Assembly (NCBI GenBank): GCA_964291655.2
Contig: OZ219802.1
Coordinates: 1,152,001-1,216,000 of the forward strand
Direction: 5' to 3'
DNA: 64,000 bases
Origin: Chloroflexota bacterium
GTDB lineage: Bacteria > Chloroflexota > UBA11872 > VXOZ01
Shown: positions 6,532-47,871 of the stretch, one piece after another
How the letters are laid out: each line of letters begins with the position of its first letter
How positions within the stretch are numbered: the stretch's first letter is position 1
Translations under genes and position numbers: made by a program
The notes under the pieces: model-generated
What the model was told of the DNA's origin: nothing
The model's database searches: none
Seen by the model: only the letters and a program-made list of their open reading frames with translations

Positions 6532-8223
6532 CTACCTTGCAACTGCGCATCTCTGCCATGCAATCGTAGGCCGGAGCGGGACACATTTCCCCTCACCCCG
6601 GCCCTCTCCCCCAGGGAGAGGGAGCAGAGTACGGAGGCGAGAGGGGGGGAATCCCCTCTCCTGGGGAGGCTGTCTCAATATTTTGGTGCGGGGCACGGTG
6701 AATGGGGTGAGAAGGACAGACAGATGGCGGGTGGTATGAACAAGACGGTGCCAGTGAGAGACTCGTCCCCGGGGCGACGCTGGACTACACCCAGACCGCC
6801 ACAGGGCGTGGAGGCTCTTGAGATTGAACGCGGTGGCCAGCAGGTGCCATTCGGACGTCACGTGGCTGCGGCCTCTGAGCAGGAAGCGCCTGGCACTGTG
6901 CCACTCCTTGAGCAGGCCAAAGACCGGCTCGACGATGGTACTCCGGCGGCGGTACACCTGCTTGGCAGGCGCGGTGGCCATCAACTGCCTGTGCCGTTGC
7001 AGTATTGGCTCGTAGGCGCTGATCTTTATGGAGCGGCCCCTCTGGGAGGAGGTGCAGACGCCGAAGGCCGGACAGGTTCTGCAGTCCCGGCCGTTGGCTT
7101 GGTACCGCTTGACCCGGTAGCCGTTGCTGTGGGTCAAGCGGTGCGTGTAGGTGAGCACCTTTTGCTGGGGACACAGGTAGGTGTCGGTCTCTGGACGGTA
7201 GGTGAAGTGGTCTTTATGGTAGGGGTTGCGGCGTCTGCGCTCGTGGGTCGTGGGCATCAATACCGTGTGGCCGCCGGCGTGGCACGTGGCGAGGTTGGCC
7301 CCCGAATGGTAGCCGGCGTCCGCAACGGTCACCACGTCCCGCGCGGCGTCGATGTTCTCCTGCGCCGCCTCGATCAGCGGCGCCAGGTGGGGATGGTCGT
7401 CGGCACTGGCGCTCACGTCCACGGCTGTGATCAACCTCCCCCCTGCGCCCTCGTCCGGGGACGCAAGAGGGGAGACCAGCGCCTGGGCGTTGTAGCCGGT
7501 GATGAAGCCACCCATGCCAGTCTTGAGCAGGGCCGCGTCCGCATCAGTCAGGTTCGTGTAGCGCGGCCCGTCCTCAGCCGCGACGCGGGCGAGCGCGTCG
7601 TCCACCCGCCGCCGCAGGGCCTGGGCATCGGCAAGTTCCTGCGGCAAAGTCGCTGGCGGCGCGTCGCCCCCCGTGGCGTTCTGCGCCTCCAGGTCCGCGA
7701 TCGCTTGCTCGGTGCGGGACAACAGCCGCTGCAGCCCCTGCGCGTCGTGGGTATGCCGCGTCCCGGCGTTGGCCGCGATCCTGGTGCCGTCCACCGCCTG
7801 GATTGCCAACTCCACCAGGCCGGCTCGCACCGCCGTGCGCACCGTGCGCTTGAGCAGCGTCCGCATCCGGTCGCGGTGCGCCTTGTAGAAGCGCCACAGC
7901 GTGTTGTGGTCCGGCTGCTGCATCCCCACCAGCCACAGGTACGGTACCTGATCCCGGCAGGCTGCCTCCAGCTTGCGGCTCGAGCGCACGCCGGTCATGA
8001 AGCCGTAGACCCATACGCCCAGCAGCGCGCGCGGATGGTAGGCCCCGGCGCCACGCGGATCGCCTTGCAGGTCAATCTCCATCGCCTCCCAGGCCGCAGC
8101 ATCGAGGCTGTCCACGAACGCTGCCGCAAACCTGACAGGATGGTCGTCCGGGATCAGTTCGTCCAGCGTCGGCGGCAACAGCCAGGCCTGTTCACGACTA
8201 AACGGTCTCAACGGCATCGTCAC
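6532..8223 (-). CDS. IS1182-family transposase
   Basis: Motifs LLPPTLDELIPDDHP, YHPRALL, SSRKLE, PDHNTL, VDGTRI, GYNAQ, ADAGY, RSTIVEPVFG. Confidence 0.92.
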   Translation of the reverse strand: MTMPLRPFSREQAWLLPPTLDELIPDDHPVRFAAAFVDSLDAAAWEAMEIDLQGDPRGAGAYHPRALLGVWVYGFMTGVRSSRKLEAACRDQVPYLWLVGMQQPDHNTLWRFYKAHRDRMRTLLKRTVRTAVRAGLVELAIQAVDGTRIAANAGTRHTHDAQGLQRLLSRTEQAIADLEAQNATGGDAPPATLPQELADAQALRRRVDDALARVAAEDGPRYTNLTDADAALLKTGMGGFITGYNAQALVSPLASPDEGAGGRLITAVDVSASADDHPHLAPLIEAAQENIDAARDVVTVADAGYHSGANLATCHAGGHTVLMPTTHERRRRNPYHKDHFTYRPETDTYLCPQQKVLTYTHRLTHSNGYRVKRYQANGRDCRTCPAFGVCTSSQRGRSIKISAYEPILQRHRQLMATAPAKQVYRRRSTIVEPVFGLLKEWHSARRFLLRGRSHVTSEWHLLATAFNLKSLHALWRSGCSPASPRGRVSHWHRLVHTTRHLSVLLTPFTVPRTKILRQPPQERGFPPSRLRTLLPLPGGEGRGEGKCVPLRPTIAWQRCAVAR

Positions 8224-8309
8224 TACCTCTCTACAAACTATCCCACCACCTCACCTTGCTTCTCTTCACACCAGTATATATCCAGTAGATCTATTTTTGA
8301 GACACCCTC
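6666..8309 (-). mobile_element. IS1182-family insertion sequence
   Basis: TIRs GAGGCTGTCTCAA / TTGAGACACCCTC; near-TSD CTGGG/TTGGG in a hairpin loop. Confidence 0.8.
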
Positions 8310-8500
8310 TTGGGGAGAGGGAGCAGAGTACGGGGGCAAGGGGCGGGGGAAGTCCCCTCTCCTTGGGGAGAGGGTTAGGGTGAGGGGGAGATTACCGCAA
8401 ACTGGGAGCCTCTTTTCCCGGTTATTGCACTCTTGCGTATCGGTCTTGCAGTTAAGGTGGATGGGGTACGCAGAAATCCCCTCACCCCGGCCCTCTCCCC

Positions 8501-9765
8501 TGTATAGACCGGGTACATGGGTTACACATGTTCGGGCACATAGGTTACACCTTAAGGCATGGAGATTCTTACAGATGGAGGAGCGCCATGCCTTGGAAGG
8601 AGAGTACGGTTGTGTCTGAACGCAAGGAGTTCATTGCACTGGCACTGATGGAAGGGGCCAACATCAGCGAGCTGTGTCGCCGTCTGGAGATCAGTCGCAA
8701 GACGGCGTACAAGACGCTGGAGCGGTATGCGAAAGCTGGCGAAGACGGTTTGCACGACCGGTCGCGGCGGCCGCACACGTGTCCGCACCGCACGCGCCCG
8801 GCGCTGGAGGAGCGCATCATCGCCTTGCGCCTGGCGCATCCGAAGAAAGGCGCACACGTGCTGCGCCGGATGCTGCAGGACCAGGGGGTCACCGACGTGC
8901 CGGCCAAGAGCACCATCAATGCCATTCTCAAACGCCATGGGCTCATCGATCCAGCCCAGAGCGCCAAGCACACGCCCCATGTGCGCTTCGAACGACCCCA
9001 GCCCAACGAGCTGTGGCAGATGGACTTCAAGGGACATTTCGTCATGCAGCAGAACCGCTGTCATCCTCTCACCCTCCTAGACGATCACTCCCGCTTCAAC
9101 CTCGGGTTACAGGCCTGTGCCAACGAGCGGGGAGAGACGGTCCAAGACCGCCTCACCGCTGTCTTTCGCCGCTACGGCTTGCCCCAGGCCATGCTCATGG
9201 ACAACGGCTCTCCCTGGGGTAACGACAGTGCCCAGCCCTTCACGCCCCTCACCGTCTGGCTCATGCAGCTGGGCATCAACGTCCTGCACAGCCGACCCTA
9301 CCATCCCCAGACACTCGGCAAGCTGGAACGCTTCCACCGCTCCCTCAAGAGCGAACTGCTGGCAGGGACCACCTTTACCGACCTGGACCATTGCCAGCGC
9401 GCCTTTGACACCTGGCGCCACTTCTACAACTTGGAACGCCCACACCATGCCCTCGATCTCGACACTCCCATTACCAGATACACGCCTAGTCCTCGCCCTT
9501 TCCCAGAGACCTTGCCTGCCCTCGCCTACGCTCCCGACGACCGCGTACGCAGCGTCGATGTCTCCGGCCGCATCTCCTTCCAAGGCAGACGGCTCCGTGT
9601 GGGCAGGGCCTTCACGCACAAGCAAGTCGCCCTGCGACCCACCCGAACGGACGGTGTCTGGGACGTGTACTTCTCGATCCAAAGAGTAAAAACCATAGAC
9701 CTCAGAGCACAAAATGTGTAACCTATCTACCCGAACATCTGTTACCTATGTCCCCGGTCTGTACA
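8501..9765 (+). mobile_element. IS481-family insertion sequence (1265 bp)
   Basis: TGTATAGACC...GGTCTGTACA ends with repeated GGTTACAC sites; TSD TCCCC. Confidence 0.92.
8588..9721 (+). CDS. IS481-family transposase
   Basis: MPWKE start behind GGAGGAG; HTH, WQMDFKG, DNG, PQTLGKLERF integrase core. Confidence 0.93.
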   Translation: MPWKESTVVSERKEFIALALMEGANISELCRRLEISRKTAYKTLERYAKAGEDGLHDRSRRPHTCPHRTRPALEERIIALRLAHPKKGAHVLRRMLQDQGVTDVPAKSTINAILKRHGLIDPAQSAKHTPHVRFERPQPNELWQMDFKGHFVMQQNRCHPLTLLDDHSRFNLGLQACANERGETVQDRLTAVFRRYGLPQAMLMDNGSPWGNDSAQPFTPLTVWLMQLGINVLHSRPYHPQTLGKLERFHRSLKSELLAGTTFTDLDHCQRAFDTWRHFYNLERPHHALDLDTPITRYTPSPRPFPETLPALAYAPDDRVRSVDVSGRISFQGRRLRVGRAFTHKQVALRPTRTDGVWDVYFSIQRVKTIDLRAQNV

Positions 9766-11769: not shown

Positions 11770-12185
11770 TCTTCCTCTGCGTAGCGCGGGGGCTTGTCCC
11801 CCGCTCTTCAAACATAGCCGCACTTCCAACCTGACCGACTCCGCCACGGCATGTCTTGCGGCACTCGCCCTGGGCGGAAGTGACGCATCGTATACCGCTT
11901 TCCTCTGCGTAGCGCGGGGGCTTGTCCCCCGCTCTTCATCCTTTCCCGCACTTCCAACCTGACCGATTCTGCCACGGCATGTCATGCGGCACTCGCCCTG
12001 CGCGGAAGTGACGTATCGCAAACCGCCTTCCTCTGCGTAGCGTGGGGGCTTGTCCCCCGCTCTTCACACTTTCCCGCACTCCCAACCTGACCGACTCCGC
12101 CACGGCATGCCCCGCGGCACTCGCCCTGCGCGGAAGTGACGCATCGTATACCGCTTTCCTCTGCGTAGCGTGGGGGCTTGTCCCT
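11770..12185 (+). repeat. 128-bp tandem array built on a GTAG-type REP (GTAGCGCGGGGGCTTGTCCCCCGC)
   Basis: REP starts at 11781, 11909, 12037, 12165. Confidence 0.9.
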
Positions 12186-12354
12186 CAATTTTGTGGCATC
12201 TACCGCCGGGGTGAAGAATGTGGTGTTCTCGGTGCCCTGCCCGGTAGCGCAGGTTTGCAACCTGCGTCCTCCTGCTGGAACGCAGTCCTTGTGGTTGCAT
12301 GTCTTTTCTTATTGCCGCAACGCTGCATTTCCCCCTCACCCCGGCCCTCTCCCC

Positions 12355-12641
12355 TGTATAGACCGGGTTGATGGGTAACAGGTGTTCGGGTTGATAGGTT
12401 ACACCATCGAATATGGGAGTTTTCGTTGTATGCAGTGTCCATGCCATGGAAGTTAGACCAACTCAATACCCTTATGGATACGGCTTTTCCCCTGGCACCA
12501 GCTCACGAACTGAACATGAGTATGTCGTGGTGCCTGGAACGTCTATTTCTCTGCCCAACCTAAAGCGCCCAAAGGTGTCAATCAGTACAATGTGTAACCT
12601 ATCAACCCGAACACCTGTTACCTATCAGCCCAGTCTGTACA
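12355..12641 (+). mobile_element. IS481-derived MITE (family B, 287 bp)
   Basis: Ends match the IS481 at 57200..58464; 6-bp TSD CTCCCC; internal ATGCCATGGAAG remnant of the transposase start. Confidence 0.88.
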
Positions 12642-12739
12642 CTCCCCCAGGGAGAGGGAGCAAGACACGCCTCTCGAGGAGATTCGCGTTCCCTATGAGC
12701 GAAGGCGCTGCCAAACGTTCCCTTGTGCTTTTAGTGCGA

Positions 12740-13092
12740 CAGCATTGGGGCTTGTCCCCCGCTCTTCATCCTTTCCCGCACTTCCAACCTGACCGACTTC
12801 ACCACGGCATGTCTTGCGGCACTCACCCTGCGCGGAAGTGACGCATCGCAAACCGCCTTCCTCTGTGTAGCGCGGGGGCTTGTCCCCCGCTCTTCACACT
12901 TTCCCGCACTCCCAACCTGACCGACTCCGCCACGGCATGTCATGCGGCACACGCCCTGCGCGGAAGTGACGCATCGCAAACCGCCTTCCTCTGCGTAGCG
13001 CGGGGGCTTGTCCCCCGCTCTTCATACATTCCCACACTTCCAACCTGATGTACTCCACTACGGCATTTGGCCGGGCACACGCCCTGCGCGGG
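12740..13092 (+). repeat. Continuation of the 128-bp GTAG-REP tandem array
   Basis: REP starts near 12740, at 12867 and at 12995. Confidence 0.88.
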
Positions 13093-29516: not shown

Positions 29517-30197
29517 GTGAGTCCTATGTTCGACAAATTTACGATTCGGGCGAAGCGGGTTCTCATGTTTGCGCACGACGAGTCTCGCCGCCTTAATCAC
29601 GACTATATTGGTACCGAGCACTTGCTCCTTGGCTTGGTGCGTGTCAAGAAAGGGAGCGCCGCGAAGGTGTTGGCCGGCATGGGGGTGGATCACGCCAAAG
29701 TGCGCGATGCGGTAAAGGCAGTTACGGAACGGGGAACACATAGCGTTGTTGGCGACATAAGCCTCTCAAATCGCGCCAAGAAGGTAATTGAACATGCCGC
29801 CGAAGAATCACACCTGATGGGACACGACTATATCGGCTCCGAGCATTTTCTCTTGGGTCTCGCGCGCGACACCAACAGCACAGGCGCAAGGCTCCTAAGC
29901 GACATGGGAGTGGGGCCGGACAAGATCCGCGGCGCCGTGGAGTTTGCCGCCGAACGTGGGAAGCAGATCAAAGCATCCAATCTCAGCTTTACTCCGGGCG
30001 CAAGCAGAGCACTTGGGTTAGCGGCAGAAGAGGCGCGCCGGTTAGGGCATAGCGAAGTTGGCACCGGGCACCTGCTCCTTGGTCTTGCAAGCGAAGGTGA
30101 AGGGCTCGCGGCGGGTGAATTGCAGGGCCTCGGTGTGGACCTGCAAAGGGTGCGCCGACAGGTTAGACAAGCGGTCAGCCAAGGAGAAGCCTCGTGA
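29517..30197 (+). CDS. Stand-alone Clp N-terminal-domain protein (three Clp_N repeats)
   Basis: Three H-x-x-[IV]G-x-x-H-x-LLGL repeats, no ATPase; GTGA overlap with clpC. Confidence 0.85.
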   Translation: MSPMFDKFTIRAKRVLMFAHDESRRLNHDYIGTEHLLLGLVRVKKGSAAKVLAGMGVDHAKVRDAVKAVTERGTHSVVGDISLSNRAKKVIEHAAEESHLMGHDYIGSEHFLLGLARDTNSTGARLLSDMGVGPDKIRGAVEFAAERGKQIKASNLSFTPGASRALGLAAEEARRLGHSEVGTGHLLLGLASEGEGLAAGELQGLGVDLQRVRRQVRQAVSQGEAS

Positions 30198-32659
30198 GTC
30201 CCCTGTTCGACAAATATACGGATCGAGCGAAGCGGGTTCTCATGCTTGCGCAAGAAGAGGCGCGCCGCTTCAACCACAATTACATCGGCACCGAGCACCT
30301 CCTGCTGGGCCTCGTGCGCGAAGGCGAAGGCATTGCCGCGAAGGTGCTCTATGACATGGGCGTGGACCTCACCAAGGTGCGCAGTGCCGTGGAGTTTATC
30401 ATCGGCCGCGGCGAGCGCGTAAACGTCGGTGACATCAGCCTGACACCCCGCGCGAAGAAAGTCATCGAACTCGCGGCAGAAGAGGCCCGACGCCTGGGTC
30501 ACAACTATATTGGCACGGAGCACTTGCTGCTCGGCTTGGTCCGCGAAGGCGAGGGAATCGCGGCCGGCGTGCTGGAAAGCCTTGGCGTAAGTCTGGAAAA
30601 GGTCCGGCAGAAGGTCATCCAATCGGTGAGTCAGCAGCCCTCGCGTCCTATCCAAGAGAGCAGCGGGCGCCAGTCTTCCTCGCGCACTCCCCTTATCGAC
30701 CAGATGGGCATCGATCTCACGGCTGCGGCGCGTGCAGATAAACTCGATCCAGTGATCGGGCGCCAGCAGGAGATTGAGCGCGTCGTGCAAATCCTCTCCC
30801 GCCGCACGAAGAACAATCCGGCACTTATCGGTGAACCCGGCGTCGGCAAGACGGCCATTGTGGAAGGTCTGGCGCAGCGGGTCGTGTCGGGCGACGTGCC
30901 GGAAACATTGCTCGGGAAACGCCTGCTCACCCTCGACATCGGCGCGCTTGTTGCCGGCACGAAGTACCGCGGCGAATTTGAAGAACGCCTCAAGAAGATC
31001 CTCGAAGAAATTCGCGGTTCCGGTGACTGTATGCTCTTCATCGATGAGTTGCATACTCTCGTTGGCGCCGGAGCGGCGGAAGGTGCGGTGGACGCCGCCA
31101 ACATCCTCAAGCCCGCGCTGGCGCGCGGAGAACTGCAGTGCATCGGCGCGACCACATTGGACGAATACCGTAAGTACATCGAACGTGACGCAGCGCTGGA
31201 GCGCCGCTTCCAACCGGTGCACGTGCGCGAACTCGACATTGAAGAGACGATTTTGGTGCTCCAGGGCGTTAAGGAACGCTATGAGGAACACCATAAAGTA
31301 CATATTACCGATGATGCCGTCAAAGTAGCGTCAGAGATGTCCGGCCGCTACGTGACCGACCGCTTCCTGCCGGATAAGGCAATCGACTTGATCGATGAAG
31401 CAGCTTCCCGCGTGCGTATCCAGCAGGCCAACACCTCCAACGCGCTGCGCAACGCGGTAAAGGACCTCGACGGCGTCGTGCGCGAAAAAGAGGACGCCAT
31501 TGAGAGTCGTCAGTATGACGAGGCGGTTGGGCTGGGCGAAAAGGAAGCGGAGCTGCGCAAGAAGATCGAAGACCTCGAGTCGGATTGGCCGAACACCGAA
31601 GAGAAGTGGCCCGAAGTTACAAAAGAGGACGTGGCGACTGTGGTCTCCATGTGGACGGGCATCCCGGTCACGCGCATCGCCCAAGAGGAATCAGCACGAC
31701 TGCTCCACATGGAAGAGAACTTGCACGAGAAGGTGGTGAGCCAGGAAGAGGCCATCAGCAACGTATCCAAAGCTGTGCGGCGGGCCCGTGCCGGTCTGAA
31801 GGACCCCAAGCGGCCGATTGGCTCCTTCATTTTCGTCGGCCCCACGGGCTCCGGCAAGACCTACCTCGCCCGAGCGCTGGCGGAGTTTATGTTCGGCAGC
31901 AGCGACGCCATGGTCCGGCTGGATATGTCGGAATACATGGAGAAACATACGATTTCTCGTTTAGTCGGCGCGCCGCCAGGTTACGTGGGGTACGAAGAAG
32001 GCGGCCAACTCACCGAGGCGGTGCGACGGCGCAGCTACTCGGTGGTGCTCCTGGACGAGATCGAAAAGGCCCACCCTGACGTCTTCAACGTGCTGCTCCA
32101 AATCATGGAGGACGGTCGGCTCACCGATGGCAAAGGCCGCACGGTAGACTTCCGCAACACTATCCTCATCATGACCTCCAATGTTGGCGCGCATCTCATC
32201 AAACGCGACGCCGCCGTCGGCTTCCGGCTGGAGGCCAACGACCTGCGCAATGAGGGACAACTCTACAAAGAGATGCGGGAACGCGTGATGGCGGAAATCA
32301 AGAAGACATTCCGGCCTGAATTCCTCAATCGCGTGGATAGCGTGGTGGTGTTCCGTCACCTGTCAAAAGAGGACATTATCAGCATCGTCGATATCCAGCT
32401 CGACGAAGTGCGGGCACGCCTCACGGAGCAAGAGATTACGTTGGAAGTGACCGACGAGGCCAAAGAACTGCTGGTGGAACAGGGCTACGACCCAGATAAC
32501 GGAGCGCGGCCGCTCCGGCGCGTAATTCAAAATTTGATTGAAAATGAACTCGCGGAAGGACTGCTGGCGGACAACTTCCACGCGGGCGATACGGTCGTGA
32601 TTGACCGCGAAGGTGAAGAACTGCGCTTGGAAGTGCGCATGCTTGTGGAACAAACGTAG
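30194..32659 (+). CDS. clpC: ATP-dependent Clp protease ATPase ClpC
   Basis: Two Clp_N repeats, GEPGVGKT and GPTGSGKT Walker A motifs, UVR-like middle domain, VGF loop. Confidence 0.95.
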
Positions 32660-37004: not shown

Positions 37005-38409
37005 CATTTCCAATACCCTCGGCGGCCAAAGAGAGCCGTTCGCGCCCCTCGACGGCAAGAACGTCAAGATGTACGTGTGCGGTATGACGCCCAAGCGCGA
37101 GCCGCACATCGGCCATGCGCGGCTCTTTGTCGCTATGGACATGATTCGACGCTACCTTGCCTACCAAGGCTACGAAGTCCAGCACGTCCAAAACATCACC
37201 GACGTCGACGATAAGATTATTGCGGCGGCGGAACGCGAAGGCGTGACGCCGGATGAAGTAGCGCAAATGTATACGGACGCCTATGACGCGGTGATGGGCA
37301 ACCTGAACGTGCTGCGGGCCCATGAGTTTCCCAAGGTTACCAAGACCTTGCCGCAGATCATCGCTATGATCGAGGGACTGATTGAGAAAGGGGCAGCGTA
37401 CGCGGCCGAAGAGGCGGTGTATTTCTCGGTCCCGGGCTTTGCGGAATACGGCGCGCTTTCCACGCGTACCGAAGAGAGCGGTATCCAGGCCGGCGCTTCC
37501 GGACGCGTGGATGATGAGCCGGGCAAGCGCGACCCCCGTGACTTTGCTCTGTGGAAGCCGGCGAAACCCGGCGAACCCTGGTGGCAGAGCCCGTGGGGCC
37601 AGGGTAGGCCCGGTTGGCACATCGAGTGCAGCACGATGATCTATGAGACGCTCGGCGAGCAAATCGACATACACGGCGGCGGCGCCGACCTCATCTTCCC
37701 CCACCACGAGAATGAGATCGCGCAGAGTGAAGCTTTTACGGAGAGAGTCCCGTTCACCAAGTACTGGCTCCATACCGGTCTGCTGACGATCAACGGCCAG
37801 AAAATGGCGCATTCGCTCGGCAACTTCATCACGATCGAGGACATTCTCAAAGAGTACAGCGGGCCGGTGCTGCGGCTCTACCTGCTCTCCGTACACTACC
37901 GTTCGCCCCTCACCTATTCACCGGACAGCCTCGATCAAGCGCGGTCCGGCATGGCGCGCTTGACCGGCGCGTTGCGTGTGCAAGCCGGGGGCAGCGGCAG
38001 CACCGATGCCGCACTAAGCCAGGCAACGCAGCAGGCCGAGACCGGCTTCTTTGCCGCCATGGACGGCGACTTCAACTCCGCCGGTGCGTTGGGGCAACTC
38101 TACGAACTCGTGCGCGAGATCAACCGTTTGGGGGCTGAGGCGCGGCCGTCCACCTTGCAGGCCGCTCAGGAGACGCTGGTGAACTTGGCCGATATCTTGG
38201 GTATTGACTTGCAGGAGATGCTGGAAGCGGAAATGGCGACCGGTGACGGCGACGCCGCCGGGTTCATTGACCTGCTTGTGGAGTTGCGTTCCGACCTGCG
38301 CCAGGAAAAGCAATTCGCGCTGGCGGACAAAGTGCGGGATGAGTTGGCAGCACTGGGAATTGCGCTAGAAGATTCGTCTAGCGGCACAGAGTGGCGACGC
38401 AAGAACTAG
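36994..38409 (+). CDS. cysS: Cysteine--tRNA ligase
   Basis: [38 protein letters not shown]. Confidence 0.95.
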
Positions 38410-38511
38410 CCTGGACGACGTGCCCCGACTGCGTTCTCACCCAATGTGGGCAAAACTCGAGGAAGCCGTACGTCGTCTTATTTTGCGCAGGGTCTGTTCG
38501 CTCGCGGAAGA

Positions 38512-38995
38512 CCGGAGCGGGGGACAAGCCCCCGCGCTACATGGCCGGAGCGACCTCCGGTAGGTGCAGGTTTGCAACCTGCACGCGCCAAATTGGTTGC
38601 CTAGCCCGTCCGATCACGGCCCAATTTGGCAACACACACGCTGACCTGGCGGTAGACAAGCCCCCGCGTTACGCTCTGACTAGCCGCCCTCCGCGCCAAT
38701 CCCAGCCACCGTTCGCGCTTTGGGTTGCGCAAAGCACCTGTCGAAGCATAATCGGCATGTGCCTGATCGACCGGAGCGGGGGACAAGCCCCCGCGCTACA
38801 TGGCCGGAGCGACCTCCGGTAGGTGCAGGTTTGCAACCTGCACGCGGCGCATGGGTAGCTTTGGCCGAGCGATCGCGAACCAATTTGGCAACACACACGC
38901 TGACCTGGCGGGGGATAAGCCCCCGCGCTACGTTCAAACAACAGGGCATCATGTGCTTAGGACTTTGCCGTTCGCGCTGAGCTTGTCGAAGCGCA
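38512..38995 (-). repeat. GTAG-type composite REP array
   Basis: Four GCGGGGGACAAGCCCCCGCGCTAC-like units plus GTAGGTGCAGGTTTGCAACCTGCAC. Confidence 0.85.
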
Positions 38996-39012
38996 AGTGG
39001 CGGCCTCTGGGC

Positions 39013-40530
39013 TCAGGGCCCAGGTTCGTCACTCTCTTCCTCAAAGATGTGCTGGATACTCTCGCCAAAGTCTCGCGCTTCGTCGTCGTACGTTGCAAAG
39101 GGATTCGGCATTTCCAGCACCCGGCCGTGGGCGGCGATGGCTTTCCAGTCCAGCACGTAGGGTATGACTTCCCAGCTATTGTTGGCGGCCACGTCCTCCC
39201 AGTCGTCCACGTAGTCATAGGCGAGAAAGAAATAGCGCCGATCCCACATGAGGTTCTCCAAATTTGACCTCAGGTCCTGCCACGGTATGGCCGTATCGGC
39301 CCCGGCGGCGGCCAGCGCGCGCAACGCCAGACTCCGCCCGTGGGCGCGCGTGTCGATTGGCGCTTGCGTCTCGGCCGTATAGACGGCGTCGCCTTCCGCC
39401 CAATAGAGATTCCGGTGCAGTTTGGCCAGCACGTCGAAGAGACTGATCGACGGGTCAATTTGGTGATAGGAAAGATCGAGTTTTATCAGGTCAGGGTCGG
39501 TCCAGGCCTGGTCGCTGCCGGCATAGCGCTTGATTTGCTCATGCTTCGTAACCCAATCCAAATAGCCATCGAGCCGCGCCGGGTCTCGCTCAAGTTCGTC
39601 CAGCACCCACGCCCAATTTTCCAGAGTCCATTCCGTATCCGCGTCGCGCCCTACAAAGCGCCGCTCGGCCTCACGCAGATAGCCTCGCTGCACCTCAATG
39701 GCGGGGATGTACTCGTCGTTATCGGTTCCCACCGTCCAACGGCCGCCGGTGGTCGCGGCAATGCGGCGGAGGTCGCGCACGGGATCAGCGAGAACAAGCT
39801 GCGGGCTCCAGCCCTGCTCGAGCAACTGAGCAACCAGCGCGGTTGTGCCAATCTTCAGCGCCGTCGTGTACTCCGAACGATTTACGTCGCCGACGATGAC
39901 GTGCAACCGGCGGTACGTGCGCTCCGCCAGTGGCTCGTCCCGCAGATTGATGATGGGCCGGCCGCCAAAGCGCACGCGATGGCTTACATCGATGGTTACG
40001 AATTGCGCCCGCTGGGAGAGGGCAAAAGCAGCCGGGGTATCGTCGCCGCGGGGCAGCAGGCAGCCGGCTCCCGTGTAGATCTGGCGGGTAACGAGAAACG
40101 GGAGCATGCCATCGACAAAGTCGCTATCGTACGGACTCTGCCGGATGCAATAATTCTCATGGTAGCCGAACGTATGGCCGAAATAGTCCGTGTTGTTCTT
40201 GACGAAGTAGGCCTGTGACTGCAGCTCGGCGGCTTTCACGGCTTGGTTGATAATGGTCTCGCCCGCTCGCTCATGGGCGACGATGTCGGTCAGCGTGCGG
40301 CACTCAGCCGTAGCATGTTCCAGGTGACCGAGGTCCAGGTACATACGTCCGCCATTGAACAGAAAGCCGCCGTTTCCCGGCACCTCGCCCCATTCGCGGG
40401 GAGGCGGGTCTATCAGACCGTGTCGACACCCGCGAAAGATAGCATCCTTCACCAGCAGGGCAGCGCGCACAGGCTGCATACTGCCTACACAGCCGTATTC
40501 TATTTCGGTGCCGAACAGAGCATCTTCCAT
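39013..40530 (-). CDS. pafA: PafA-like Pup--protein ligase
   Basis: FGTEIEYG, FLFNGGRMYLD, ATAEC, KNNTD, GYHENY, FLVTRQI, RDEP, RRLHVIVGD, DLSYH, DTRA. Confidence 0.85.
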   Translation of the reverse strand: MEDALFGTEIEYGCVGSMQPVRAALLVKDAIFRGCRHGLIDPPPREWGEVPGNGGFLFNGGRMYLDLGHLEHATAECRTLTDIVAHERAGETIINQAVKAAELQSQAYFVKNNTDYFGHTFGYHENYCIRQSPYDSDFVDGMLPFLVTRQIYTGAGCLLPRGDDTPAAFALSQRAQFVTIDVSHRVRFGGRPIINLRDEPLAERTYRRLHVIVGDVNRSEYTTALKIGTTALVAQLLEQGWSPQLVLADPVRDLRRIAATTGGRWTVGTDNDEYIPAIEVQRGYLREAERRFVGRDADTEWTLENWAWVLDELERDPARLDGYLDWVTKHEQIKRYAGSDQAWTDPDLIKLDLSYHQIDPSISLFDVLAKLHRNLYWAEGDAVYTAETQAPIDTRAHGRSLALRALAAAGADTAIPWQDLRSNLENLMWDRRYFFLAYDYVDDWEDVAANNSWEVIPYVLDWKAIAAHGRVLEMPNPFATYDDEARDFGESIQHIFEEESDEPGP

Positions 40531-40841
40531 GCTGCGTATTCCAATGTGGCGTGGGCTTAGCCGGACGAGTGCGGCGCTAGTTTTCCGCGTGCGATTGTAA
40601 TGGACATTCTGACCTAGCGGACAATGTAAACTCAGGCGACCTACTTTTCACGGGAGTTCATGGAGAAAGGCCGAACGGCTACCGGACCATGCGGAAGTAG
40701 ATACATGTGGCAAGAGCGTTCGATTGTTCGCCGGCCTCTCAATAAAGATTGCCATTAGCGTGGGGTTCACGGGGGGATAATTCGAACTTAACCGAGAGTT
40801 ACTCGACCGGCGCCTCGGATGCTTGGCTTCTCGACCGTTGG

Positions 40842-41066
40842 CTACTCTCCACCAGGCTGCGGTGTGGGGTCGGGCACCTCGCGAATGATGCGCTTGATCT
40901 CTTCGTCAAGATCGTCGGTTTCGGTTTTCTCCGGCGCCTCAGTGGGCGTTTCCGTAGGCGCATCGGCGCCTGCCAAAACAGAACGCGGGCCGCCCCGCAG
41001 CAACCCCTGCCACACTGTAGTGTTGGAGTGTTCTATCTGAAATCCATTCCCAGCATACCACGTCAC
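40842..41066 (-). CDS. Putative Pup/UBact-like modifier peptide (74 aa, C-terminal GGE)
   Basis: GTG overlapping the dop stop (GTGA) with GGAGG SD; ends DDLDEEIKRIIREVPDPTPQPGGE. Confidence 0.7.
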   Translation of the reverse strand: MTWYAGNGFQIEHSNTTVWQGLLRGGPRSVLAGADAPTETPTEAPEKTETDDLDEEIKRIIREVPDPTPQPGGE

Positions 41067-42577
41067 GAGCCGCCTCCTTGTTGCACTGCTCGGCGGAGTT
41101 CTTCGATTGTTTGACACCCATCCACCAATTCTTGCTGTCTCTCCACTGTGGCCCCCCACAGTTCATTCAGAGATAGAGTGAAGGACGCCCCGTTGTGCCC
41201 AAATGTGACGGATCCCCACTCCATTTCCGTAATGTACGGCGCGAACTTGGCGAGGCAAGCTGCGCGCACCGTGGCACGCGTGCCTGCGGGCGCTGTATTC
41301 TCCGCGCGGTCGATATCCGCATCCGTCACAATGCGCTGCATCCGTCCGGCGCGGGTCAGCATGTGGTAGAGGCTCACCGCAGGGTCCACCATATGGTACG
41401 CGAGATCGAGCCGCAGCACCGCCGGGTCATCCCAGTCGACGGCGTCATCACCGCTGACCTGGGCGAAGAGCGCGAGCTTTGCCACCCAGTCCAGACGGTC
41501 GCGCAAGCGCGTGGGGTTCGCATCCAGCAGATCAAGCACGGTTCCCCATTCGTCCAGCACCCAATCGGTCTCGTCGTCGCGATTGTGGTATCGTTGCGCC
41601 GCTTCCCAATAGAGGCGCTGAATGTCAATGGCACGCAGTGTAGAGCCGTCGGCCATTGCAAGAGGCTGCTGCAATTTGAGATCGCGAGAGACCGCTCGCA
41701 GTGCCTGCACAGGGTGTCGGAGTTGCACCCGTGGCGTAAGACCCTCCTCGACCAAATCGAGCATCAAGGCCGTGGCACCGACGCGCAAGGCCGTGGCAAA
41801 CTCGGAGCAATTGGCGTCGCCAATGATAACGTGCAACCGGCGGTACTTCTGAGGATTGGCGTGCGGTTCGTCCCGCGTATTGAAGATCGGGCGTTGTGTG
41901 GTGGTATTTATGCCCACTTCTGTTTCAAAGAAGTCCGCCCGCTGGCTGATTTGAAAACCGCCGGTGCGGCTCGTTGCCGTCTCATACGCCGCTTTCCCCG
42001 CGCCCGCATAGATCTGACGGGTGACGAAAAAGGGGATGCAGGCTGATATCAGATAGTCCAAAGGCACACTACGGCTTACAAGATAATTTTCGTGGCAGCC
42101 GTAACTCCTACCGTGATAGTCTGAGTTATTCTTGACGAGGCGTACGCCATTCTCTTGTCCCACGGCTGTGTTACGCGCTTGTTGGGCACGGAAGACCACA
42201 CGCTCGCCGGCCCTGTCTTGGGCAACAAGATCATGGAGCGAGAGGCACGCATCGGTGCAGTATTCGGGATGATTGTGGTCGTTGTAGAGACGGGCGCCGT
42301 TGGCAAGCACGGTATCGGCGAGGAGGTCCTGCCGGCTGAGATGCCTGCTCTTGGCAGTGTTACCGCGCAGGTCGTGCGGATCTTGGTCGAGGCGTTTAAC
42401 TCGTTTGCCGCGCAGGTCTACGCGCGGGTTTTCCGCCGTGTAGTCCCACCCGCGGAAGCAGTCCGCCAGCGGCGCGCTGCGCACGAGCATGGCCGCCTCG
42501 TAGGCGAAATCCACGGTTTCCGCGGCGTTGGCGCAGAGCATGCCGTACTCGGTCTCGATTCCCACCGGGCGATTCAT
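41063..42577 (-). CDS. dop: Dop-like depupylase/deamidase
   Basis: GIETEYG, Dop-loop WDY segment, LANGARLYNDHNHPEY, KNNSD, SYGCHENY, ISQRADFFE, NTRDEPHA. Confidence 0.87.
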   Translation of the reverse strand: MNRPVGIETEYGMLCANAAETVDFAYEAAMLVRSAPLADCFRGWDYTAENPRVDLRGKRVKRLDQDPHDLRGNTAKSRHLSRQDLLADTVLANGARLYNDHNHPEYCTDACLSLHDLVAQDRAGERVVFRAQQARNTAVGQENGVRLVKNNSDYHGRSYGCHENYLVSRSVPLDYLISACIPFFVTRQIYAGAGKAAYETATSRTGGFQISQRADFFETEVGINTTTQRPIFNTRDEPHANPQKYRRLHVIIGDANCSEFATALRVGATALMLDLVEEGLTPRVQLRHPVQALRAVSRDLKLQQPLAMADGSTLRAIDIQRLYWEAAQRYHNRDDETDWVLDEWGTVLDLLDANPTRLRDRLDWVAKLALFAQVSGDDAVDWDDPAVLRLDLAYHMVDPAVSLYHMLTRAGRMQRIVTDADIDRAENTAPAGTRATVRAACLAKFAPYITEMEWGSVTFGHNGASFTLSLNELWGATVERQQELVDGCQTIEELRRAVQQGGGS

Positions 42578-42726
42578 GGGTCTATCCTGACTTTGCGATT
42601 GTAGAATCTAGTATAGCAAGCCGCAGCGCGATTGGACGCCCCGTCCGCGAGACCGTCGCGTCCGCGGAGTCGCCGCACGTCGAGAGGGATTTGCACAACG
42701 TGCTCAGGATTGAGGCACACAGAAAT

Positions 42727-42977
42727 GTAGCGCGGGGGCTTGTCCCCCGCTGGCCTGGCACTTGGTACCCAAACGGGCTGCTCTTGGCCGGCGGAGTAAC
42801 TCTCGCGCCTCGTCCAGGTTGCATAACTGCACCTACCGGAGATCGCTCCGGCCTTGTAGCGCGGGGGCTTGTCCCCCGCTGGCCTGGCACGTGGTTCCCA
42901 AATGGGCTGCTCTTGGCCGGCGGAGCAACTCGCGCGCCTCGTGCAGGTTGCAAACCTGCACCTACCGGATGTCGCTC
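42727..42977 (+). repeat. GTAG-type composite REP array (129-bp period), inverted relative to 38512..38995
   Basis: REP at 42727 and 42856; 42811-42880 is a near reverse complement of 38515-38585. Confidence 0.85.
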
Positions 42978-42999
42978 TGGGCAGACATGCGCCGCCGGC

Positions 43000-43884
43000 T
43001 TACCGCGGATCCTGCGGGCCGATGTCGCCTTCCGCCAGGATGCCGTAGAGTTCCGGCCGGCGGAAACGGGGATGGAAGACTCCCTGCGAACGGCGCTCGG
43101 CCAGGAGTTGCTTATCGAGGTCGGCAGTGACCATCACTTCGTCATCGGCGTCATCCGGGGAGGCCGCCACCAGTTGTCCCAGCGGGCTATAGACCACGAC
43201 CATGGGATTACTGTAGTGCGCGCTCCCGCCGGTTGGCGGCGGCCCGCAGGCGTTGATAGCAACGAGAAAGACCCCGTTATCGATGGCACGTGCGGGAAAA
43301 GTACGGCCGGCGTAGTCTTTCCAGGCGCGGTTGCGGCTGGCGTGGTCCGGCGGCTCGCCCCACTCGCCGACTGACCAGACGTAGGGAGCGAGGATGACCT
43401 CAGCCCCTTGCAACGCCACCATGCGGCTCGACTCCGGCAGCCAGTTGTCGAAGCAGATGTTCACGCCAACTTTGGCAACACCAATGTCGATTACGGGGGG
43501 AGTGCCGCCGCCGCGCCAGTAACCCACCTCCGCCGGTGGGATGTGTATCTTGCGCGACTTGCCAATGTACCCATCAGGACCCACGATCACGTAGGTGTTA
43601 TACACAATGTCGCAGTCGTTTTCGGCAATGCCGGCGGCGAGCATGACGTTGTGCTCCCGCGCCAGGTCTACGAGCGCCTGCGTGGAAGGTCCCGGCACCG
43701 GTTCGGACGCCTCCCAGATTGCCGGTGTGATGGAATAGCCGCTCAGACCAAGTTCCGGAAAGCAGATGAGTTCGGGATTCTCCGCCTTGGCCCGCACGAC
43801 CCACGCGGCGTGATGGTCCAGGTTCTCCCGCGGCGACGCCGGCTTGCTGCACAGCGACACCGCCGAAACGCGAAAGCTCTGCAT
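43000..43884 (-). CDS. Carbon-nitrogen hydrolase (nitrilase superfamily)
   Basis: E-K-C triad: FPELGLSGY, RKIH, NICFD. Confidence 0.9.
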   Translation of the reverse strand: MQSFRVSAVSLCSKPASPRENLDHHAAWVVRAKAENPELICFPELGLSGYSITPAIWEASEPVPGPSTQALVDLAREHNVMLAAGIAENDCDIVYNTYVIVGPDGYIGKSRKIHIPPAEVGYWRGGGTPPVIDIGVAKVGVNICFDNWLPESSRMVALQGAEVILAPYVWSVGEWGEPPDHASRNRAWKDYAGRTFPARAIDNGVFLVAINACGPPPTGGSAHYSNPMVVVYSPLGQLVAASPDDADDEVMVTADLDKQLLAERRSQGVFHPRFRRPELYGILAEGDIGPQDPR

Positions 43885-44301: not shown

Positions 44302-47300
44302 TCAATCTGTAGGTATCTCTAGTTGGTCGTATTTGTTCCAGCCCCAGCAGAGGGCCGTGCCGTTCTCTCTCAGTCCGCAAGCATGCATTCTGCCGGTAGT
44401 GATGTCCGTGAAGCGCTCGCCTTCCGGCGGTGAAGCCTTGCCATAGGCGTCGTCACCCCAGCAGACGGCAGTGCCGTCCGTTCGCAGGGCGCAGGTGTGG
44501 TCATAGTTGGAGCTTATCGCCGTATAGCGCTGGCCCGTGGGCGGGGATGCTTCCCCGTACCAATTTTGGCCACCCCAGCATACAGCGGTGCCGTCAGTGC
44601 GTAGAGCACATGCATGAGAACTACCGCTGCTGATCACCCTAAAGCGTTCGCTCTCCGGCGGCGATGTCGCACCACTATAGTCGTCGCCCCAGCAAATGGG
44701 CGTACCGTCTTCTCGCAGTGCGCATGTGAACAAACTGCCGCTGCTTATAGACGTGAAGCGCTCTCTTTGAGGCGCCGATGTTTGAACGTAATCATCCCAG
44801 CCCCAGCAAGCGGCAGAACCATCCTCGCGAAGAGCACAAGTGTGGCCACTGCCAGTGCTGATGGCAGTAAAACGCTCGTTCGCAGGTGGCGTTGCCTGTC
44901 CGCCGCTATTGTTGCCCCAACAGATAGGTGTTCCATCCTCACGCAAGGCACAGATGTGCCCACTAGTGCTAATTGCGGTAAAGCGTTCGTTATCAGGTGG
45001 CGCTAAGCCAATTCGACCCCAGCACACGGGTGTTCCGTCCGTGCGGAGCGCACACGTGTAGCCTGAGGTGCTGCTGATCGCCATGAAGCGAGGCGCAGGT
45101 GTGGGCGTTACCGATGCGGACGTAGAAGGCGAAGGCGTTGGGGGTGGAAGCGGAGCGTGATAGGACTCCGGTGAGGTTTGGCCGTAGTCCTCCCATCCCC
45201 AGCAGACGGCGCTGCCGTCCGCACGCAGGCCGCAGGTGTGGGAACTGCCAGCGCTGATGTCCTTAAACTGCTCATCTGCCGGCGCCGAGGATTGTCTTGA
45301 GTGATCATCTCCCCAACATACGGCCGTGCCATCCGGACGAAGCGCGCACGTGTTGCCCGACCCACTGCTGACAGTTGTAAAGCGCTCACCTTCCGGCGGC
45401 GTTGCAGCGTGAACATATCCCCAGCAGACGGGAGAGCCATCATCCCGCAGCGCGCAGGTGTGGCTAACTCCACTGCTAATCGCCGCGAATTGCTCTCCTT
45501 CCGGGGGAGCTGCCTGTTCCTGGCCGTTCTCTCCCCAGCAGACCGGGGTGCTGTCTGCACGGAGTCCGCAGCCGTGCGAAGCGCCCGTGCTCAAGCTAGT
45601 GAGAGTCTCACCCTCTAGGGGACTCTCATCAATGAACTCCCGGCCCCAACAAACCAGGCTTCCGTCCGTCTTGAGGGCGCACGTGTACGAGCGCCCGTAG
45701 CCGGAGCTGACCGCCGTGAAACGGTATTCCTCTGGCGGCGACCGAGGCGGCGAGGGCTCGCCTCCGCCCGACGGCCAGCAATACACCGTGCCGTCCTTAC
45801 GCAGCCCGCAAGGTTCGGCTCCAACGCTGACGGAACTGAACCGCTCGTTGCGTCCTAAGTAGTAACTGGAATCCCAGGGTCCCCAACAGTAAAGAGAACC
45901 GTCTGTACGGAGACCGCAGGCCTGATTGTAGCCGCTGCTGATGGCGGTAAAGCGCTCTTCCGCAGGCGGAGAGGCGTCTATGCCCCAACAAACCGGCGTG
46001 CCGTCCGCGCGCAGCGCGCAAGTGTGCAAGTCCCCGCTGCTGATAGCCACGAAGCGCTCTTCCTCCGGCGGCCGCGCCTGCCCGAAGTTGTCTCGATGGG
46101 GGCTAGCGTCTGCTTGCACGCGAAACCCCCAGCAAACCGGAAAACCATCTTTGCGCAGCGCGCACGTGTACTTTCCAGCACTACTGATGGCGATGAATCG
46201 TTCGTCCTCAGGAGCATCGGCCCGACCATCGTAGTTTTCACCCCAGCAGACGGGAGATCCGTCTTCACGCAGAGCGCACGTGTGGTATTGACCGCTGCTG
46301 ATAGTAACGAACGCCTCACCGAGGGGTGGAGCAATGGCTCCTGGCAAACCCCAACAAAGAGGCTTGCCACCAGCAAGTAACCCACAAACATGGTTGCCAC
46401 CGCTGCTAATTGCCAGGAAGCGCGCGCCTTTTGGTGGCGATGCCTGTCCTGAATGATTTGATCCCCAGCAGATTGCAGTGCCATCTGCTCGCAATCCGCA
46501 GGAATGGCGCTCACCACTGGTGATGGCAACGAAGCGCTCATTCACTGGAGGCGAAGACTCGCCGTACTTGTCGTCATCGCTCCAGCAGACGGGAGAGCCG
46601 TCCTCACGCAGCGCGCAGGTGTGCTTGTCACCGCTGCTGACGGCGACGAAGCTCTCGCCCGCCGGCGGCGCCGCCTGGCCTTCACGATTCGATCCCCAGC
46701 ATAACGCCGTGCCGTCCGGCCGCAGGGCGCACGTATGTAATCTCCCGCTGCTGATGGCTACTAGGCCTTCCGCGGCGAGCTGCGCAAAGACAGGCGTGGG
46801 GGCCGACCTCGCCACGAGCGGCTGCGCGGGTGGCGGCTTGGAGGCATCCATCGGCAGCGATGCCTTGCCGTAACTATCATCTCCCCAGCAATAGATAGTC
46901 CCGTCCGCGCGCAGGGCACAGAAGTGGTTTCCGCCACTGTCGAGCGCCACGAAACCCTCACCTTCCGGCGCTATCGTTGTACTTTCAAACCTACCGCCCC
47001 AGCAGAGTGCCGTCCCGTCCGCCTGCAAACCGCAGGCGCGGAAAAAGCCGACGATTACTGCCGTAAAGCGTCGGTCTTCAGGAGGCGAAAGATCGGCAAG
47101 CAGGTCACGGCCCCAGCAAACGGCTCCGCCGTTTGCGCGTAAGGCGCACGTGTCATTCGCACCGCTGGCTATGGCAGTGAAGCGCTCCTCTGTCGGGGCC
47201 TCGGTCTGGCCATCTTCGCTATTGCCCCAACATGAGGCGCCACCATCTGTCCGCACCGCACAGAAAAAGTTTCCGCCACTGCTGATGGCAATATAGCGCT

Positions 47301-47871
47301 CGCCCTCCGGCGGCGTTGCCGCCCCGCCACTGTCCAAACCCCAGCAGACGGCGCTGCCGTCTTCACGCAGGGCGCAGGTGTGCAAACTGCCGCTGCTGAT
47401 GGCCGCAAAGCGTTCGTTACTTGGTGGGGGAACCTGCCCAAATCTATCATCGCCCCAACAGACTGCCGTCCCATCCGCTCGCAGGGCACACGTGTGCCCC
47501 CAGCCGCTGCTGATGGCGGTGAAGCGTTCGCCTGTGGGAGCCGATACCTGACCAAAATAGTCCGAGCCCCAGCAAACTGCGCTGCCATCCTCCCGCAGTG
47601 CACAGGTATGATCATAGCCGGTGCTCACCGCAATGAAGCGATGCGGAGGTGTCGGTGTAGCTGTCCCCATAGGGTAAGGACTAGGCGAGGCGACAGGCCC
47701 AGAGAGAAGATCCTGTGCGTCCGCTGGTTGCGGTGCCGCAGGCAAGACCCGCTGATCGCCTGCGCATGCCGCCAGCAGCGCTACTGTCAGCAGGAAGAAC
47801 AAGCCTATTCTTGCCAATAGGCACACAAACTCTTGTACGGGGAGCAGCACGAGGTATGAGAGTGTCGACAT
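44302..47871 (-). CDS. RCC1/BLIP-II-like beta-propeller repeat lipoprotein
   Basis: Lipobox LAAC; 28 repeats of FxAISSGxxHTCALRxDGxxxCWG; true start may be downstream. Confidence 0.88.
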   Translation of the reverse strand: MSTLSYLVLLPVQEFVCLLARIGLFFLLTVALLAACAGDQRVLPAAPQPADAQDLLSGPVASPSPYPMGTATPTPPHRFIAVSTGYDHTCALREDGSAVCWGSDYFGQVSAPTGERFTAISSGWGHTCALRADGTAVCWGDDRFGQVPPPSNERFAAISSGSLHTCALREDGSAVCWGLDSGGAATPPEGERYIAISSGGNFFCAVRTDGGASCWGNSEDGQTEAPTEERFTAIASGANDTCALRANGGAVCWGRDLLADLSPPEDRRFTAVIVGFFRACGLQADGTALCWGGRFESTTIAPEGEGFVALDSGGNHFCALRADGTIYCWGDDSYGKASLPMDASKPPPAQPLVARSAPTPVFAQLAAEGLVAISSGRLHTCALRPDGTALCWGSNREGQAAPPAGESFVAVSSGDKHTCALREDGSPVCWSDDDKYGESSPPVNERFVAITSGERHSCGLRADGTAICWGSNHSGQASPPKGARFLAISSGGNHVCGLLAGGKPLCWGLPGAIAPPLGEAFVTISSGQYHTCALREDGSPVCWGENYDGRADAPEDERFIAISSAGKYTCALRKDGFPVCWGFRVQADASPHRDNFGQARPPEEERFVAISSGDLHTCALRADGTPVCWGIDASPPAEERFTAISSGYNQACGLRTDGSLYCWGPWDSSYYLGRNERFSSVSVGAEPCGLRKDGTVYCWPSGGGEPSPPRSPPEEYRFTAVSSGYGRSYTCALKTDGSLVCWGREFIDESPLEGETLTSLSTGASHGCGLRADSTPVCWGENGQEQAAPPEGEQFAAISSGVSHTCALRDDGSPVCWGYVHAATPPEGERFTTVSSGSGNTCALRPDGTAVCWGDDHSRQSSAPADEQFKDISAGSSHTCGLRADGSAVCWGWEDYGQTSPESYHAPLPPPTPSPSTSASVTPTPAPRFMAISSTSGYTCALRTDGTPVCWGRIGLAPPDNERFTAISTSGHICALREDGTPICWGNNSGGQATPPANERFTAISTGSGHTCALREDGSAACWGWDDYVQTSAPQRERFTSISSGSLFTCALREDGTPICWGDDYSGATSPPESERFRVISSGSSHACALRTDGTAVCWGGQNWYGEASPPTGQRYTAISSNYDHTCALRTDGTAVCWGDDAYGKASPPEGERFTDITTGRMHACGLRENGTALCWGWNKYDQLEIPTD

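Follow-up and report, generated by a model that had tools for sequence, protein, structure and literature searches.

Here we report the analysis of a three-gene cassette found within a 64,000-nucleotide (nt) stretch of contig OZ219802.1 of a Chloroflexota bacterium (assembly GCA_964291655.2, positions 1,152,001 to 1,216,000), hereafter called the window and numbered from its first letter. The cassette occupies 39013-42577 on the minus strand in the order dop, tag, pafA: it encodes a protein related to Dop, a small peptide that is a candidate protein modifier of the Pup/UBact kind (referred to below as the tag), and a protein related to the ligase PafA. The features of the cassette, with protein lengths in amino acids (aa), are the following.

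41063..42577, minus strand: Dop-like gene, 504 aa, assigned by PF03136, TIGR03688, a match to solved Dop and the tree
40842..41066, minus strand: putative modifier (tag) gene, 74 aa plus stop codon; disordered, acidic, rich in Pro and Thr, ending PQPGGE
40845..40916, minus strand: conserved C-terminal module of the tag, residues 51-74, DDLDEEIKRIIREVPDPTPQPGGE; holds the invariant columns and the predicted contacts with the PafA-like protein
40531..40841, no strand assigned: spacer of 311 nt between the tag gene and the PafA-like gene
39013..40530, minus strand: PafA-like gene, 505 aa, assigned by PF03136, TIGR03686 and the tree; without the Dop loop
39163..39294, minus strand: insertion in the C-terminal domain of the PafA-like protein, residues 413-456, 44 aa, aromatic and acidic, clade-specific

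A first-pass annotation made from the sequence letters had described a Dop-like gene coupled to a 74-aa peptide, which has the short helix DDLDEEIKRIIREV and ends in PQPGGE, and a PafA-like gene that follows after 311 bp, and all of these are present as described. The GTG start codon of the tag (41066-41064) overlaps the TGA stop codon of dop (41065-41063) in the tetranucleotide GTGA, and the motif AAGGAGG lies upstream at 41079-41073. Read from its first GTG, the small open reading frame (ORF) would be 105 aa long, and from the overlapping GTG it is 74 aa long; the latter length was predicted by gene callers in 19 of 23 matches from close relatives, all of them without a name. The spacer had no Rfam match when 38000-43500 was scanned, no sigma-70-like promoter was seen in it, and its predicted RNA fold does not rise above that of shuffled sequences (z = +0.61), while the single weak terminator-like site near it (40999-40984) falls within the tag ORF. 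The spacer is variable in length inside the genus and measures about 10-30 nt in many other lineages, where dop, tag and pafA are packed 10-30 nt apart.

Both enzymes belong to the Pup ligase family, as the PF03136 model (Pup_ligase, gathering cut-off 25) matched the Dop-like protein with 512.6 bits and the PafA-like protein with 355.7 bits. The more specific models tell the two apart: the Dop-like protein scored 441.5 with TIGR03688, over positions 2-483 of 485, versus 354.1 with the PafA model, and the PafA-like protein scored 283.5 with TIGR03686 versus 249.6 with the Dop model. A full-length alignment of the Dop-like protein with solved Dop (5LRT/4B0R, 366 bits) takes in the Dop-specific loop region and places LYNDHNHPEY opposite LYVDHAHPEY, the strand with the catalytic Asp; the PafA-like protein lacks the Dop loop. 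In an alignment of 20 PafA rows from three lineages, the N-terminal ExE motif (E9, E11) and D66 are invariant, and we take the roles of the ExE and catalytic Asp residues to be those usually given for these enzymes. The same alignment contains the 44-aa insertion at residues 413-456 (TAIPWQDLRSNLENLMWDRRYFFLAYDYVDDWEDVAANNSWEVI) in all 14 Chloroflexota-type rows and in none of the six UBact-type or actinobacterial rows.

The phylogenetic tree comprised 65 proteins from the window and from 14 of 72 Chloroflexota, 11 of 80 UBact-type and 7 of about 84 actinobacterial loci, picked for their spread of identity (one locus, L265, gave only PafA), and was built by a quick IQ-TREE search with the LG+G4 model, midpoint rooting and branch support from the Shimodaira-Hasegawa-like approximate likelihood ratio test (SH-aLRT). 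All first genes of the loci fall on a Dop side and all second genes on a PafA side (SH-aLRT 99), which agrees with the identities initially given to the two genes of the window; the aromatic and acidic insertion noticed at that stage near the C-terminus of the PafA-like protein is likewise real. On each side the Chloroflexota-type proteins form one clade with a support of 100. The PafA clade is sister to the UBact-type PafA (SH-aLRT 98), and the placement of the Dop clade is not settled by the tree.

When species-representative genomes were scanned with the Dop-like protein as query, 79 loci were obtained, 75 from Chloroflexota metagenome-assembled genomes (MAGs) and four from actinomycetes, in line with the Chloroflexota host proposed at first. 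A tag ORF directly follows dop in all 72 readable Chloroflexota loci, starting at the dop stop codon or a few bases away from it; the remaining three of the 75 fetched loci are unreadable at this place (contig ends in L072 and L080, a run of N in L053). Conservation of the small ORF beside homologous dop genes, the lack of which had been named as evidence against the initial claim, thus holds across loci where Dop identity drops to 45%. The 72 tails share the consensus RIIRE[IVLM]P[DGN]P[TK]PQPGG[EQ], with a terminal Glu in 44 and a terminal Gln in 28. Among 30 diverse members that were aligned, 11 of the 16 final residues are invariant (R59, I60, R62, E63, P65, P67, P69, Q70, P71, G72 and G73). 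The last 24 codons are represented by 71 distinct DNA sequences that encode just 25 distinct peptides; the third codon position varies in 24 of 24 codons, with an entropy of 1.29 bits versus 0.36 and 0.22 bits at the first and second positions. Since the third positions are free while the peptide is kept, purifying selection acts on a protein, and the small ORF is a real, conserved gene. A second conserved block, AETEAPxKPxETPTE, spans residues ~34-47 (40926-40967, minus strand) and includes the invariant P37 and P45.

The tag has a narrow taxonomic distribution. In an even sample of 301 Chloroflexota genomes it was found in 31, every one of them in the class of the window's genome: besides the latter, 30 of the 32 class members carry it, while none of the 268 genomes from other classes does. 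The tag is also present at two loci whose MAGs are labelled Thermoflexus and may or may not belong to this class. Tag and enzyme pair co-occur, as one genome (G031) lacks both, and another (G017), which has UBact, a proteasome and ARC, lacks the Chloroflexota-type tag.

To place the tag relative to the known modifiers, we compared it with Pup and UBact by hidden Markov models (HMMs) and by profile-profile alignment. None of 30 tags matched PF05639, TIGR03687 or NF033388 at E<=10, whereas the positive controls, peptides from fetched loci, scored 71.1 bits for Pup and 78 and 83.2 bits for UBact. A search of the window's genome with NF033388 gave no match, and the Pup model found there only a 14.8-bit match within an unrelated frame of 367 aa. 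In hhalign comparisons the tag profile (30 rows) reached a probability of 0.44% against UBact (19 rows) and 2.65% against Pup (13 rows). The control pair, Pup versus UBact, was as insignificant (0.74%), and sequence comparison fails alike to connect any two of the three tag families. Two features of Pup, a C-terminal GG[EQ] and a gene next to dop/pafA, are both found in the tag, whose gene always lies directly after dop.

Searches of larger collections did not name the tag either. Its profile gave 26 matches at E<=0.001 among 1.84 billion representative proteins, and ten of these were fetched: seven have the full tail and three lose the tail before the end. The final profile match, to a 2246-aa protein over 15 positions, is probably due to chance. 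No usable match was obtained from the ESM Atlas, and no Pfam or NCBIfam model names any of the 30 tags scanned. Full-text searches of the literature on UBact and on pupylation, PafA and Dop in Chloroflexota found no description of the tag; an alignment in a supplement, e.g., Additional file 1 of PMC2588565, might still contain sequences of this kind. The initial claim that the peptide is neither an ordinary Pup nor an ordinary UBact is borne out by these comparisons, and at the level of sequence they support a distinct modifier class in Chloroflexota. We think it somewhat more probable than the contrary that the tag constitutes a third modifier family beside Pup and UBact, not modelled before, which would be functionally conjugated to proteins and act outside the proteasome.

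A possible mode of tag recognition was suggested by structure prediction for the PafA-like protein (20-row alignment) together with tag residues 30-74 (30-row alignment). The resulting complex has an interface score (ipSAE) of 0.74, versus 0.02 for the best of three controls; 58 of 80 solved complexes attain this mark, versus 2 of 110 mismatched pairs, a calibration that is rough here as our own alignments were used. The model runs share at least 80% of their contacts, and the predicted local distance difference test (pLDDT) of the partner is 66-68. In the model, a tag helix of residues 49-61 rests on residues 332-371 of the PafA-like protein, and tail residues 63-74 contact its residues 11-21, 66-69, 108 and 115-122, beside the invariant E11 and D66, so that the tail is predicted to sit in the active-site cradle. 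The conserved residues of the C-terminal module are those that touch the PafA-like protein in the model, whereas the AETEAPxKPxETPTE block falls outside the predicted interface. The insertion at residues 413-456 makes none of the confident contacts to tag residues 30-74.

The degradation machinery that accompanies Pup and UBact was not found by profile searches either beside the cassette or elsewhere in the window's genome, an assembly of 3.47 Mb in two contigs that is 97.55% complete. The proteasome model PF00227 had no match in it. The ARC/Mpa model TIGR03689 had its best match at 146.9 bits, versus a cut-off of 504.75, and this match is an FtsH; two FtsH proteins and ClpX are the best matches of this model. 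The first-pass annotation had noted that no proteasome or ARC gene adjoins the cassette, and had named arc, prcA and prcB elsewhere in the genome as evidence that would count against it; none was found. Among 41 relatives from the genus and the class, the Pup_ligase pair is present in 40, an ARC-like match (E<=1e-60, 453 bits, under the cut-off) in one, and proteasome genes beside the locus in one. That relative, G017 (loci L111/L113, C2:61576-68457), encodes ARC-Dop-UBact-PrcB-PrcA-PafA with a UBact of 78 bits, and only there (L113) was this canonical order found. The nearest relatives of its Dop are from Armatimonadota, not Chloroflexota. With three more Pup_ligase paralogues that stand alone on other contigs, the same genome has five Pup_ligase proteins in total; these findings suggest horizontal acquisition and an expansion of paralogues.

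The presence and conservation of the three genes, the placement of these within their families, and the lack of a proteasome and of ARC together point to a self-contained three-gene cassette for protein tagging, akin to the Pup and UBact systems but with a third tag family, that functions without a proteasome or ARC; on balance we favour this reading, with confidence slightly above even. In the proposed mechanism, the 74-aa tag would carry a free Glu at its C-terminus when synthesized. Its short helix (DDLDEEIKRIIRE) is predicted to dock on the PafA-like enzyme, and the proline-rich tail VPDPTPQPGGE would thread over the beta-sheet cradle of the enzyme to the ATP/Mg site. There, in the manner of PafA acting on Pup, the enzyme would phosphorylate the side-chain carboxylate of the terminal Glu and couple it to the side chains of lysines in its protein targets; cleavage of such a conjugate by trypsin would leave on the lysine a remnant EVPDPTPQPGGE linked through Glu74. 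We infer this chemistry from the family membership of the enzyme and its conserved active-site columns. The Dop-like enzyme would strip the tag from lysines and, for tags that end in GGQ, would first turn the Gln into Glu; these roles are suggested by Dop orthology, and the retention of the enzyme in both GGE and GGQ genomes supports them. It had been argued at first that a GGE end needs no deamidation, which would leave Dop acting as a depupylase. The GGE end stands for the window, but 28 of the 72 relatives end in GGQ, and across the family the Dop-like enzyme would therefore be needed as a deamidase as well.

Since neither a 20S proteasome nor ARC/Mpa is present in the genome and in nearly all relatives, the tag would not deliver proteins to the proteasome. 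It is more likely a reversible regulatory mark, or is read by another partner, and we lean modestly towards a mark that is reversible and non-degradative. The main alternative shares the genes and the chemistry with this reading and differs from it only in the fate of tagged proteins, which would be degraded by ClpC/ClpP, ClpX/ClpP, FtsH or Lon after recognition of the ETEAPxKPxExP block or of a free N-terminus. Genes for ClpC, ClpX and two FtsH proteins are present, and the second conserved block of the tag, with P37 and P45, lies outside the confident PafA interface and could serve in such a hand-over. However, dop, tag and pafA are the only genes common to 20 diverse loci that we compared, and in none of these loci does the cassette have a linked gene for an unfoldase or protease. 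The ClpC-like gene of the window (30194-32659, plus strand) lies ~6 kb from the cassette in a clpC...ispF-cysE-cysS housekeeping stretch, an ordinary context for it. The first-pass annotation had mentioned this nearby gene with the caution that no link was shown, and we rejected ClpC as a reader, as its linkage with the cassette is not conserved in the 20 loci. We consider degradation by these proteases unlikely, while giving it more weight than any other alternative. A second candidate reader was an upstream ORF of 435-646 aa, the widest other gene cluster (7 of 20 loci). It has no Pfam match and its translation resembles an antisense frame of a GC-rich gene; it was dropped as a probable artefact.

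The preferred reading of a third tag family has a competitor: the tag could belong to the UBact family, in a UBact system that diverged strongly after or while losing prcAB and arc. The sister position of the PafA-like clade to UBact-type PafA is consistent with this, as is the occurrence of a canonical UBact locus in the same class (G017). By eye, a Q-x-x-G-[EQ] end is common to this tag, Pup and UBact, and D-L-x-x-R-x-K-R-[IV] is common to the tag and UBact at an equal distance from the end; the sole hhalign alignment between tag and UBact, which is insignificant, pairs ETDDLDEEIKRI with DTKELLRRMRRV. We regard this likeness to UBact as a lead and not as evidence. On the other side, NF033388 recognized neither any of the 30 tags nor any sequence of the genome, while true UBact scored 78-83 bits, the hhalign probability stayed at 0.44%, and the tail reads PQPGG[EQ], not RYRQR[ST]G[EQ]. 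Moreover, the UBact-type Dop of G017 is nearest to Armatimonadota, so that its locus looks like a separate acquisition, and the tree does not resolve the Dop-like clade and UBact-type Dop as sisters. Overall, an origin of the tag within the UBact family appears improbable to us.

A poorer candidate, which seems very improbable, is a standard Pup system whose proteasome was lost secondarily, like that of Corynebacterium, with the tag as a divergent Pup: the GG[EQ] end with Gln at -5 recalls VQKGG[EQ] of Pup, and actinobacteria without prcBA are known from the excerpted text of PMC8223512, but PF05639 and TIGR03687 matched none of the 30 tags (hhalign 2.65%), such actinobacteria keep ARC while it is missing in 40 of the 41 genomes here, and the enzymes are not nested within actinobacterial clades. 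It is just as doubtful that the small ORF is not a tag and that the enzymes act on another carboxylate and amine or process the peptide as a natural-product precursor, which would fit their carboxylate-amine ligase superfamily (Iyer et al. 2008, PMC2588565, in the part of that paper considered here) and their scores below the equivalog cut-offs, given that the terminal GG[EQ] with its E/Q alternation is the substrate requirement of Dop and PafA, that the predicted binding of the tail in the cradle has clean controls, and that no biosynthetic, export or immunity genes are conserved nearby in the 20 loci.

Several points weigh against the proposed tagging system and its non-degradative role. All four scores of the two enzymes with the Dop and PafA models are under the NCBI equivalog cut-offs (492.3 for TIGR03688 and 551.3 for TIGR03686), and the exact enzyme activities could differ accordingly from those of the named families. 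The tree comes from a quick search, was rooted at its midpoint and sampled the actinobacteria narrowly. As the solved PafA-Pup complex 4BJR is among the sequence matches and may be echoed in the complex prediction, the model speaks for a likeness of binding mode, not for binding. The absence of a proteasome and ARC is based on one assembly of 97.55% completeness and on relatives that are MAGs, and weak PF00227 matches (~20-46 bits) occur in four relatives, far from their cassettes (G005:C1:2090244-2090720, G011:C1:901263-901739, G010:C3:463628-464209 and G037:C1:651972-652136). Finally, the term regulatory mark itself argues from absence, as neither a reader nor a substrate came to light.

Comparison with known systems defines what is shared and what is particular to this cassette. 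In UBact loci (NF033388; from Armatimonadota, Poribacteria and others among the fetched loci) dop is followed by a small tag gene, as here. The UBact tags are similar in size and have a G[EQ] end, with 48 Glu and 26 Gln in 74 loci versus 44 Glu and 28 Gln here. Their tail is RYRQR[ST]G[EQ] in contrast to PDPTPQPGG[EQ], and the tags are unrelated by HMM and profile-profile comparison. UBact loci also have prcB and prcA between tag and pafA, and ARC upstream, neither of which is in this cassette, and the UBact PafA is without the 44-aa insertion of the PafA-like protein. The Pup-proteasome system of Actinomycetota is alike in its orthologous Dop/PafA pair, the GG[EQ] end with Gln at -5, the acidic helix before the tail and the binding in the cradle, the last being predicted here. 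It differs in having Mpa/ARC and the proteasome, none of which is found here, and the tag has no match to the Pup model. Pup reportedly forms a second helix on PafA in the 4BJR complex. The last ten residues of the tag are rich in proline and, judged by their composition, should be unable to form such a helix.

Tagging without a linked proteasome has precedents. In the excerpted text of PMC8223512, Corynebacterium glutamicum and some other Actinobacteria lack prcBA and keep ARC. Tagging is thus kept there without prcBA as in the present case, but ARC and a standard Pup are retained, unlike here, and Corynebacterium was the sole control genome above the cut-offs of both the ARC and Pup models. 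Pup-ligase loci that are unlinked to proteasome genes occur in Plesiocystis and Rhodopirellula (Iyer et al. 2008, PMC2588565); according to the part of the paper covered here, these ligases have four transmembrane segments and a linked membrane protein, neither of which was seen in our cassette. That part of the paper does not mention Chloroflexi.

To our knowledge, pupylation is the sole well-studied bacterial counterpart of ubiquitin tagging, and its biology has been read almost wholly via the proteasome. Here, strong selection maintains the tag with its putative writer and eraser across a whole bacterial class, and neither a proteasome nor ARC/Mpa, the one known reader, was found; these bacteria would thus offer a natural test of what Pup-like tags do besides proteasomal degradation. 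In its fullest form, which we hold to be somewhat likelier true than false, the reading is that of a third family of disordered bacterial tags in one Chloroflexota class with many sponge-associated MAGs, where the proteasome and ARC were lost or never present. A PafA with an extra aromatic and acidic module would write the tag onto lysines and Dop would erase it, which would make the mark purely reversible, and a proline-rich, non-helical tail would lead the tag into the ligase. If true, this would be a bacterial 'ubiquitin without degradation'. As the proline-rich tail is predicted to enter the same active site, the system can also reveal the essential features of Pup recognition by PafA and Dop. 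Annotation pipelines currently name the enzymes 'Pup ligase' and 'depupylase' without any tag, and in the 72 loci the tag has no name from HMM libraries. A compact trio of ligase, tag and eraser with an orthogonal tag could also be of use for proximity tagging of the PUP-IT type.

The cassette is flanked on each side by two tandem copies of a repeat of 126-167 nt, in inverted orientation between the sides, with 76-nt arms that are 92% complementary.

38510-38676, plus orientation: flanking repeat, first copy
38769-38935, plus orientation: flanking repeat, second copy
42726-42851, inverted orientation: flanking repeat, third copy
42855-42980, inverted orientation: flanking repeat, fourth copy

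These inverted repeats were considered as a sign of mobility and rejected, as their GC-rich hairpin core of 27 nt (AGCGGGGGACAAGCCCCCGCGCT...) is scattered through the genome, with at least 62 matches listed (40 of 204 candidates were scored). The flanking repeats look like intergenic repeats of the repetitive extragenic palindromic (REP) or miniature inverted-repeat transposable element (MITE) type, and only the longer identity of 70-167 nt is local. Five copies of the hairpin core also occur at 11779-13019 (minus strand), three of them at an exact spacing of 128 nt and the other two 128 nt apart; this region is an array of the intergenic repeat.

Two further features of the window were noted. 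A gene at 44302-47871 (minus strand) encodes a protein of 1189 aa that consists almost entirely of RCC1-type repeats (21 stretches, 583.8 bits) after an N-terminal hydrophobic segment. An ORF of 755 aa at 6352-8619 (plus strand), without a Pfam match, overlaps an ORF of 563 aa at 6532-8223 (minus strand), and either of the pair may be the real gene.

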